A stretch of 8,704 bases of DNA from a virus. Its lineage: Duplodnaviria; Heunggongvirae; Uroviricota; Caudoviricetes. Each line of letters begins with the position of its first letter. The first letter of the stretch is position 1. Below the pieces are notes generated by a model, which saw nothing but the letters and a program-made list of their open reading frames with translations, had not been told where the DNA came from and did no database searches. Of this stretch, positions 3,808-4,314 are shown piece after piece. Where the stretch lies: the IMG/VR virus record IMGVR_UViG_2713896905_000005, positions 1 to 8,704 of that record; one strand, written 5' to 3'. A program made the translations under genes and the position numbers.

Positions 3808-4314
3808 TTAAATTGCGTGAATAGCGTGACGAGGGAAGGGGAGAGTTACTGGTGCAAAGGGTATATCGTCGTCAAAATCCATCGGAGGTTCGTTGTGTTG
3901 TGCTGGTGATGATTGCTGCTGTGGCTTCTGTGATTGCCTGCTGGCTGCTTGTTGTTTGCTGTCGCCAATGCCGCCAAGCATTTGCATCACGCCATTAATT
4001 CCGACATGAACCTCGGTTGTGTAACGGTCTTGCCCTGACTGGTCTTTCCACTTTCTGGTTCTCAGCATTCCCTCGAAATAAATCTGATCACCTTTTTTCA
4101 CATACTGCCCCACGACCTCAGCCAGTTTCCCGGATACAGCAACACGATGCCATTCAGTCAATTCCTTTTGCTCGCCAGTATTTTTATCTCGCCATTGTTC
4201 TGACGTGGCTATTGTCAGGTTAGCGAACGCTGTTCCTGATGGTGAGTATCGAACTTCCGGGTCTTGTCCTACCCGACCAAGGATAATCACCTTATTTACG
4301 CCTCTGCTTGCCAT
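3808..4314 (-). CDS. ssb: Single-stranded DNA-binding protein (SSB), 168 aa, with a 15-residue extension after the canonical DDDIPF tip
   Basis: N-terminal OB-fold region closely matches E. coli SSB as recalled ([10 protein letters not shown]…QDPE…TEWHRV…[12 protein letters not shown]…MQMLGG), followed by a Q/S/P-rich linker and [14 protein letters not shown] directly follows the stop of the upstream recombinase gene. Confidence 0.9.

Follow-up and report, generated by a model that had tools for sequence, protein, structure and literature searches.

An acidic tip at the extreme C-terminus is a hallmark of bacterial-type SSB, the protein that binds single-stranded DNA, and the free C-terminal Phe of that tip counts as the universal docking point for the genome-maintenance interactome of bacteria. 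The IMG/VR virus record IMGVR_UViG_2713896905_000005 (Caudoviricetes), whose positions 1 to 8,704 make up the 8,704-nucleotide window analysed here, carries an ssb gene in which the tip is present and is then followed by further protein sequence. Why would a phage SSB keep the tip and bury it? The open reading frame (ORF) occupies 3808..4314 on the minus strand and encodes 168 aa, with MDFDDDIPF followed by a 15-residue tail. An earlier note on this DNA had counted the extra residues exactly, and the span that it gave, 3808-3855, is precisely the tail plus the stop; it had offered either avoidance of host partners or a recent stop-codon loss as the cause. Our overall explanation, to which we assign a probability of roughly 0.55, is that the tail is a selected peptide native to the SSB, that its boundary with the tip is the empty site of an HNH endonuclease cassette, that it would mask docking to host proteins, and that tip and tail together would form a composite motif.

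The protein is otherwise built like a bacterial-type SSB. An authentic SSB OB fold makes up its N-terminal part, as PF00436 matched residues 6-104 (4003..4299, minus strand, Pfam envelope) with 125 bits against a cut-off of 26, the protein matched phrog_44 at 1.6e-66, and AlphaFold2 returned the expected beta-barrel strands with block-mean pLDDT of 77-90 at residues 11-110. A Gln/Pro-rich disordered linker, marked by variable alignment columns, follows at about residues 115-144 (3883..3972), and after it come the tip at residues 145-153 (3856..3882), the tail at residues 154-168 (3811..3855) and the TAA stop (3808..3810), all on the minus strand. Residues 116-168, the tail included, had pLDDT below 50 in a monomer model built from a 61-sequence alignment, a predicted disorder of the kind expected for a linear motif. 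The OB fold, the disordered Gln/Pro/Gly-rich linker and the acidic tip motif D-F-D-D-D-I-P-F are thus all in place; the departure from the canonical protein is that the tip does not lie at the extreme C-terminus, Phe153 being followed by 15 residues.

The extension is widespread. The 168-aa protein is identical to the annotated SSB of the isolated phages HK75 and mEp235, and the same tail ends a 90%-identical SSB in Salmonella phage epsilon34 and an approximately 70%-identical SSB in ECP1. A 121-nt query spanning the tip/tail boundary was searched against a phage collection and an E. coli collection. The contiguous junction was found in nine isolated phages (HK75, mEp235, mEpX2, epsilon34, g341c, NM-3, HZ41, ECP1 and CP-1639), with the HK75 DNA 100% identical to the window, and in 239 of 5426 complete E. 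coli genomes at 80% query coverage or more (409 of 5426 with any match), where every match carries a plain ssb annotation. The presence of one junction in both HK75 and the E. coli genomes excludes a sequencing artefact. At the protein level, among the 120 best 90%-identity clusters of a whole-protein search (66-93% identical), 112 have a tail past IPF, of the type [AS]P[VI][TG]LPFPRH[AT][IV][HY][AV][IL], and seven stop at IPF. A search with the last 42 residues alone gave 13 short fragments and was uninformative, and a PDB sequence search returned free-tip SSBs and tip-tagged myosin constructs only, with no entry bearing the tail.

Two further scans covered viral contigs. A degenerate back-translation of the tail matched at least 119 IMG/VR contigs, which together with the window and seven phage records gave 127 loci; these hold 18 tail DNA variants, and the tail peptide is fused to SSB in 97 of them, although the pattern admits synonymous variants only and cannot by itself show selection. 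A tip-anchored scan (P-M-[DN]-F-D-D-D-I-P-F) left the tail unconstrained. When the tip pattern was counted over the pooled loci, 108 of 177 occurrences ran past IPF and 69 stopped there, a ratio that overstates tails since the pool includes loci from the earlier tail-pattern scan. Downstream of SSBs that stop at IPF, no untranslated remnant of the tail was seen within 900 nt (0 of 53).

These counts bear directly on a recent stop-codon loss, frameshift or sequencing error in a single genome. Such an event would need little luck, as we estimate the chance of 15 stop-free codons at about 0.5 from (61/64)^15, and the extension is not improbable on length alone; host and plasmid SSBs normally end at IPF, as do the 69 untailed viral occurrences. 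It is its conservation that places the extension beyond chance. An identical junction in nine isolated phages and at least 239 complete E. coli genomes, the tail in nearly all of the closest clusters, and a peptide kept through up to 7-9 synonymous changes leave this explanation with practically no probability. The earlier note had itself named the sharing of the extension by many functional phage SSBs as a refutation, and an alignment as the check between a conserved extension and a one-off; the extension is conserved in isolated phages, E. coli genomes and protein clusters alike, and the suggestion of a one-off falls.

Conservation reaches across both the tip and the tail. In the alignment of 61 homologues the internal tip is near-invariant: F147, P152 and F153 do not vary, M145, D148, D149 and D150 are at least 90% conserved, and P143 and P144 just before the tip are invariant or at least 90% conserved. 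Within the tail, P155, T157, L158, P159, F160, P161, R162, H163 and I168 are at least 90% conserved, and the linker columns of the same alignment are variable. Diverged loci show how the peptide is held. In locus L330, with an OB domain 71% identical to that of the window, the tail differs from the window by seven synonymous and no non-synonymous changes, and in L258 by five synonymous changes and one non-synonymous change. The pooled pN/pS of 13 unbiased, diverged genes was 0.47 for the tail and 0.28 for the OB domain. Promoter, terminator and Rfam scans of the region found no element beneath the tail. The lack of a DNA or RNA element under the tail and the keeping of the peptide through synonymous change place the constraint on the protein. 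Judged from these alignments, a large clade of phage and prophage SSBs carries the 15 residues as a true C-terminal peptide module under selection, and not by accident.

The same conclusion is reached from the distribution of the tail over protein backbones. Tails from the tip-anchored scan follow the consensus AP-[IV]-[GT]-L-[QPM]-[YF]-P plus 6-7 residues ending in I, V, L or M, and tails of this enteric pattern are found on the canonical SSB, on a short PF00436 SSB ('MAINTITISG...'), on the SSB of the virulent T1-like phage ACG-M12, and on phrog_4477 and L145-type proteins, the last two not recognisably SSB. The ACG-M12 protein, which matches phrog_44 only, ends in FEDDIPF-APIGLQYGMSNIYVL. 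Tails of one pattern after the tip on unrelated SSB backbones show the tail to be a module, native to the SSB lineage. The tip itself also occurs on proteins other than canonical SSBs in L146 (an IMG/VR contig of 145,964 bp) and in L175/L131, the phrog_4477 protein among them; a phrog_7364 SSB-like protein of this set ends in ...DDDIPF-MDTYHRQSKLGHCV, a different extension.

A species-level scan with one genome per species and the pattern F-D-D-D-I-P-F-[AS]-P, which leaves the rest of the tail unconstrained, found FDDDIPF-AP... in 109 loci. The 14-16-residue enteric type was present in Enterobacterales, Vibrionales, Alteromonadales and Pasteurellaceae. Pseudomonas carries tails of nine residues (APLHHLAGA-like) or eleven (APISRLLLNII-like), alpha-proteobacteria have APE[VFWH]R, and beta-proteobacteria have further types. 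The neighbouring genes are recombination genes, namely those for YqaJ exonuclease, RecT and an AAA_24 (Sak4-like) ATPase, which indicates that these SSBs belong to prophages or mobile elements. The tail type follows the host lineage more than the SSB backbone, a distribution that hints at a host-specified partner or at exchange limited by host range. Prophage-type SSBs with such tails, with YqaJ exonuclease, RecT or AAA_24 genes as neighbours, are present in dozens of Pseudomonas species (among loci L224-L332, for example L240, L247 and L268).

The boundary between tip and tail turned out to be a genetic junction in its own right; this point, and the strong conservation of the internal tip, had been missed by the earlier note. 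In Sf6, IME10 and CurroJimenez the SSB ends in ...NFDDSDIPF (...PPMNFDDSDIPF) followed by a stop, and in Huey it ends in ...PPMNFDDEIPF followed by a stop. The next ORF in all four phages encodes an HNH endonuclease of 155-159 aa that ends in the tail peptide, and the final 14 residues are common to the four HNH proteins and the window tail. The DNA of the HNH-carrying phages matches the window exactly from ACCAGTAACTC onward, across the stop and the abc2 start. When Huey and the window were compared, nt 1-431 of ssb had no mismatches and nt 432-456 had eight, so that the segment recoded in HNH-carrying alleles corresponds to the tip plus base 3883 (3856-3883, minus strand). A comparison of Sf6 with ECP1 was similar, the mismatches being densest in the 3'-terminal part of ssb. 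This mismatch pattern indicates that the last nine ssb codons arrive with the cassette as a recoded copy of its own, together with a stop. The alignments show that these recoded codons and stop give the SSB a free IPF end, and that the HNH ORF reads on into the former tail.

Each of the two SSB core types is found in cassette-bearing and cassette-free form, the window type in Huey and HK75 and the Sf6 type in Sf6 and ECP1, respectively. The ORF is present or absent at one exact position between near-identical flanks, and its target is recoded in the carrier allele, as expected of an empty-site comparison. By this evidence the tip/tail boundary is shown to be the presence/absence site of a predicted free-standing HNH endonuclease cassette, its junction falling at the 5' edge of the tail (3853-3856, minus strand), and the window, like HK75 and ECP1, is the HNH-less, empty-site allele. 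The cassette has the layout of a free-standing homing endonuclease whose target is recoded and immune.

Is the tail a gift of the endonuclease to the SSB, or the reverse? The identical 14 residues at the ends of the HNH proteins of Sf6, IME10, Huey and CurroJimenez would be accounted for if the tail were a functionless scar, that is, the native C-terminus of an HNH protein left on ssb after deletion of the endonuclease gene, and homing endonuclease genes can be lost by deletion. The HNH proteins themselves argue otherwise. They matched PHROG 2340, 'endonuclease', at 2.6e-47 (a Pfam search assigned no family), and this match ends at residue 143 in Sf6 gp26 or 139 in Huey, before the tail. Relatives of the endonuclease were found by tblastn in 559 phage records, including genes annotated as I-KsaII and PacI-like HNH, and in unrelated phages (ACG-M12, Vibrio phage D80, ctDrO704, L147 and L156) they often come right after ssb. 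The homologues in these five and in DU_PP_I lack the tail, and they end 4-10 residues past the last catalytic His, for example in WHAENGE, WHLNNDPVY or WHKSNTPIYPPSQI followed by a stop. Because HNH homologues elsewhere are tailless and the PHROG match stops before the tail, the tail is read as native to SSB and captured by the endonuclease ORF. Related tails also occur on many SSB lineages and taxa that have no such HNH gene, and the peptide is under purifying selection in its SSB context. A scar is therefore very improbable.

Several of these loci have features of their own. In Vibrio phage D80 (L335, 2-505 and 589-1026) the SSB that precedes the homologous HNH gene ends in ...PPSDFDDDRS with IPF lost, and here the effect of the endonuclease insertion seems to have been to destroy the tip, not to restore it. 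In Podoviridae sp. ctDrO704 (L336, 804-1241 and 1195-1617) the annotated SSB continues for 36 residues after ...GLDDDIPF, where the frame enters the beginning of an overlapping HNH gene (IFNCNTICDML...); this post-tip extension is of an unrelated kind and is probably a by-product of insertion. The tblastn HNH match in ACG-M12 (L333, 1201-1602) begins about 20 codons upstream of the annotated endonuclease start (KVCFKCGGLKPITEFYKHKA...), and the annotation may be N-terminally truncated or mis-started. The RefSeq record of IME10 (L337) leaves two ORFs without annotation, abc2 at 1160-1456 and, at 667-1146, an intact 159-aa HNH ORF that is like Sf6 gp26 and carries the captured tail.

A second optional cassette sits at the other end of the tail. 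In mEp235, epsilon34 and CurroJimenez a gene for an Rv2179c-like 3'-5' exonuclease (PF16473, 247 bits; L002 2102-2650, L006 1602-2150 and L005 2058-2606) lies directly after the ssb stop and before the abc2 ribosome-binding site; it is absent in HK75 and in the window, where the site is 3807/3808. The sequence after the tail in related loci is accordingly either TCAGGAGAAAATCATG, leading to abc2, or GGACTTACATGAATCA, leading to the exonuclease. In the window the intergenic stretch is TCAGGAGAAAATC (3795..3807, minus strand), with the abc2 Shine-Dalgarno sequence AGGAG at 3801-3805, and this string comes after the tail in 44 of the 127 related loci, with close variants in others.

A site that serves as the junction for two optional cassettes raises the possibility that the tail is neutral for the SSB and is conserved as DNA, either as the recognition or homology sequence of a homing endonuclease or as a mosaic-boundary sequence where lambdoid modules recombine. 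The uniformity of the tail DNA would suit this proposal, the commonest variant being present in 73 of the 127 loci, or in 90 when the HNH-context form, which differs only in the preceding codon, is included; 'boundary sequences' are also recorded nearby in the Sf6 annotation. The manner of divergence speaks against it. Copies that have diverged keep the peptide and differ for the most part at synonymous positions, the reverse of what a constraint on DNA predicts; DNA-diverged tails keep the amino-acid pattern AP[IV]GL.[YF]P, and the region scans gave no promoter, terminator or Rfam element. We consider conservation as DNA improbable.

What, then, would a protein-level tail do? In E. coli, the addition of a single C-terminal Gly to SSB abolished detectable binding to chi and DnaG and led to poor growth, and tip docking requires the terminal Phe with its free carboxylate, SSB+Gly no longer fitting the pocket (PMC3045619, PMC3632105). 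The premise of the earlier note, that an internal tip should alter partner binding, is reasonable in the light of these published losses. By analogy, the tail of the window SSB would remove the free alpha-carboxylate of Phe153, and the protein would not dock in the canonical host pockets of chi and DnaG, and probably of Exo I, RecQ and PriA. Single-stranded DNA made by the adjacent Erf/Abc2 module would be coated yet uncoupled from the host SSB interactome, with no recruitment of host nucleases or helicases. Canonical docking of host partners is thus probably blocked by the tail, and avoidance of such partners by a phage SSB is plausible; taken as a whole, the earlier interpretation is partly supported.

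Blocking is unlikely to be the whole function. The internal tip and the tail are both conserved while the linker varies, and for this reason a composite motif is the most likely reading: the 24 residues of tip plus tail would act as one short linear motif of altered specificity that redirects the SSB to a different, possibly host-lineage-specific partner. This suits the alignment better than a merely inactivated tip, which would be expected to decay.

Two other functional proposals were weighed against the composite motif. The SSB could be a pro-protein in which cleavage between Phe153 and Ala154 removes the tail as a cap and exposes the canonical tip when or where it is needed. A near-invariant tip in an internal position would be explained, and a defined junction would be compatible with the two residues after the Phe, which in the tip-anchored scan are [AS]-P in 103 of the 108 occurrences with a tail (15 of 20 distinct tail types); the whole tail is conserved, however, beyond the junction alone. 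Neither a protease nor a precedent for such a cleavage of SSB is known, and we think the proposal unlikely. The tail could instead be a C-terminal degron for an AAA+ protease, or a clamp-binding-like motif of the form x-[VI]-x-L-x-[FY] that resembles QLxLx[LF]. Across lineages, the last residues of the tails are for the most part hydrophobic or small (...HAI, ...NII, ...LAGA, ...NCM), and PVTLPF, PIGLQY and PIGLMY resemble the clamp hexapeptide at positions 2, 4 and 6, whereas the Pseudomonas and alpha-proteobacterial tails do not fit the clamp motif. This pair of functions has a low probability. When the motifs were compared individually, the beta-clamp consensus QL[SD]LF or QLxLxL fitted P-V-T-L-P-F and P-I-G-L-Q-Y at its hydrophobic positions, with the defining Gln absent. 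The ssrA-like degron ends in L-A-A-COOH; the window tail ends in H-A-I, and only the ...LAGA type of Pseudomonas comes near the pattern.

Several points count against the combination of masking and a composite motif. Sf6, Huey and CurroJimenez are viable with a free-tip SSB and carry the tail on the HNH protein instead, which indicates that growth does not require the tail on SSB. If the tail served only to kill tip function, the internal tip would not be expected to stay so strictly conserved. Clustering of neighbouring genes for a co-occurring partner pointed to none, the Erf-like upstream gene standing beside tailed and untailed SSBs alike (91 vs 40). The AlphaFold2 monomer shows no intramolecular docking of the tail. 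The dN/dS comparisons comprise few, phylogenetically related sequences, in which the tip was fixed by the search pattern. Homing by the cassette is putative and is read from anatomy only. As to the other neighbours, abc2 and the downstream exonuclease occur mostly with tailed SSBs, possibly through plain linkage.

A broader extension of masking plus a composite motif is tentative, and we would not wager on it. Tip plus tail may constitute a class of composite C-terminal linear motifs across the phages and prophages of Proteobacteria, which would cap the tip against the host SSB interactome, Exo I included, and possibly against defence systems that react to the tip; a lineage-specific tail would recruit another partner, and the HNH cassette would toggle the SSB between a masked and a free tip.

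How does this SSB compare with known systems? The chromosomal SSB of E. coli and the SSBs of F/P1-type plasmids and phages share with it the PF00436 OB fold, the Gln/Pro-rich linker and an identical nine-residue tip, but in those proteins the tip is the true C-terminus, whereas the window SSB adds 15 conserved residues and has no Phe alpha-carboxylate. The only experimental model that we found is the engineered E. coli SSB+Gly (Naue et al. 2011; 2013), in which the terminal Phe is likewise made internal; its extension is artificial and one residue long, whereas the window tail is natural, has 15 residues, is conserved and forms families. In phage HK620 the C-terminal SSB residues NDYPPF are needed by the cognate Sak4 recombinase (PMC5928155). 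That pair is likewise a phage SSB beside the phage's own annealing protein, but the HK620 SSB ends in its tip and its partner is Sak4, whereas the window SSB is tailed and its neighbour is Erf/Rad52-like.

The Sf6 gene 26/PHROG 2340 HNH family, which includes Staphylococcus phage endonucleases annotated as I-KsaII, occupies in sister phages the site that is empty in the window, which lacks the gene. Among free-standing homing endonuclease genes, the Seg and Mob genes of T-even phages show an ORF between or into conserved genes, present or absent in near-identical genomes, with the target recoded in the carrier. The HNH cassette shares this layout but is of another lineage and target, and it also switches the SSB between masked and free tip.

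Literature searches for the tail peptide strings and for C-terminal extensions of phage SSBs found no description. The sole trace of the tail that we found stands in the GenBank entry for Sf6 gene 26, where a note reads '14 contiguous amino acids identical to ... E. coli SSB'; it records the match but does not say that an SSB tail was captured. In the epsilon34 genome paper the protein is simply 'a bacterial type' SSB, and the DRT10 and DARNA papers describe phage SSBs as defence triggers and do not cover the tail extension. The tail is common in databases under an ordinary SSB annotation, is conserved and contradicts the usual rule for the SSB tip, and with the HNH cassette a known type of selfish element gains a new example.

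If masking plus a composite motif is correct, a family of phage SSBs that keeps the tip yet buries it amounts to a natural experiment on the rule of universal docking, and it suggests that phages can coat single-stranded DNA with an SSB that, for the nucleases, helicases and polymerases of the host, is 'invisible' or differently wired. The finding is relevant to recombineering, in which compatibility between the single-strand annealing protein and the SSB tail limits portability, to the conflict between phage and host over single-stranded DNA intermediates, in which several defence systems are triggered through phage SSBs, and to genome annotation, in which tailed proteins now pass as ordinary SSB. 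In the HNH cassette there is also a clean example of a selfish element whose insertion changes the C-terminus of an essential-type protein. Were the tail neutral, it would be merely a common allele of a well-known gene; demonstration of masking or of a new partner would raise its interest substantially.

The setting of the gene is that of the early-left (recombination) region of a lambdoid/P22-like phage, and phage mEp235 is 98.9% identical over half of the window. Downstream of ssb is abc2, encoding anti-RecBCD protein 2 (3498..3794, minus strand; PF11043, 207 bits). Upstream is a gene for an Erf-like, Rad52-fold single-strand annealing protein (4315..5022, minus strand; PF04098, 91 bits; annotated as Erf-like in HK75 and mEp235), the stop of which abuts the ssb ATG. 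The gene survey of the window also placed a cI-like LexA/S24 repressor at 7522-8172 on the minus strand and a Cro-like gene at 8253-8438 on the plus strand. The other early-left ORFs, at 83-1096, 2164-2811, 2808-3344 and 1541-1954 on the minus strand, encode a 337-aa protein whose C-terminus holds a DUF551 domain, an Ead/Ea22-like protein and two proteins with no Pfam match, and they resemble ordinary genes of the lambdoid 'ea' region.

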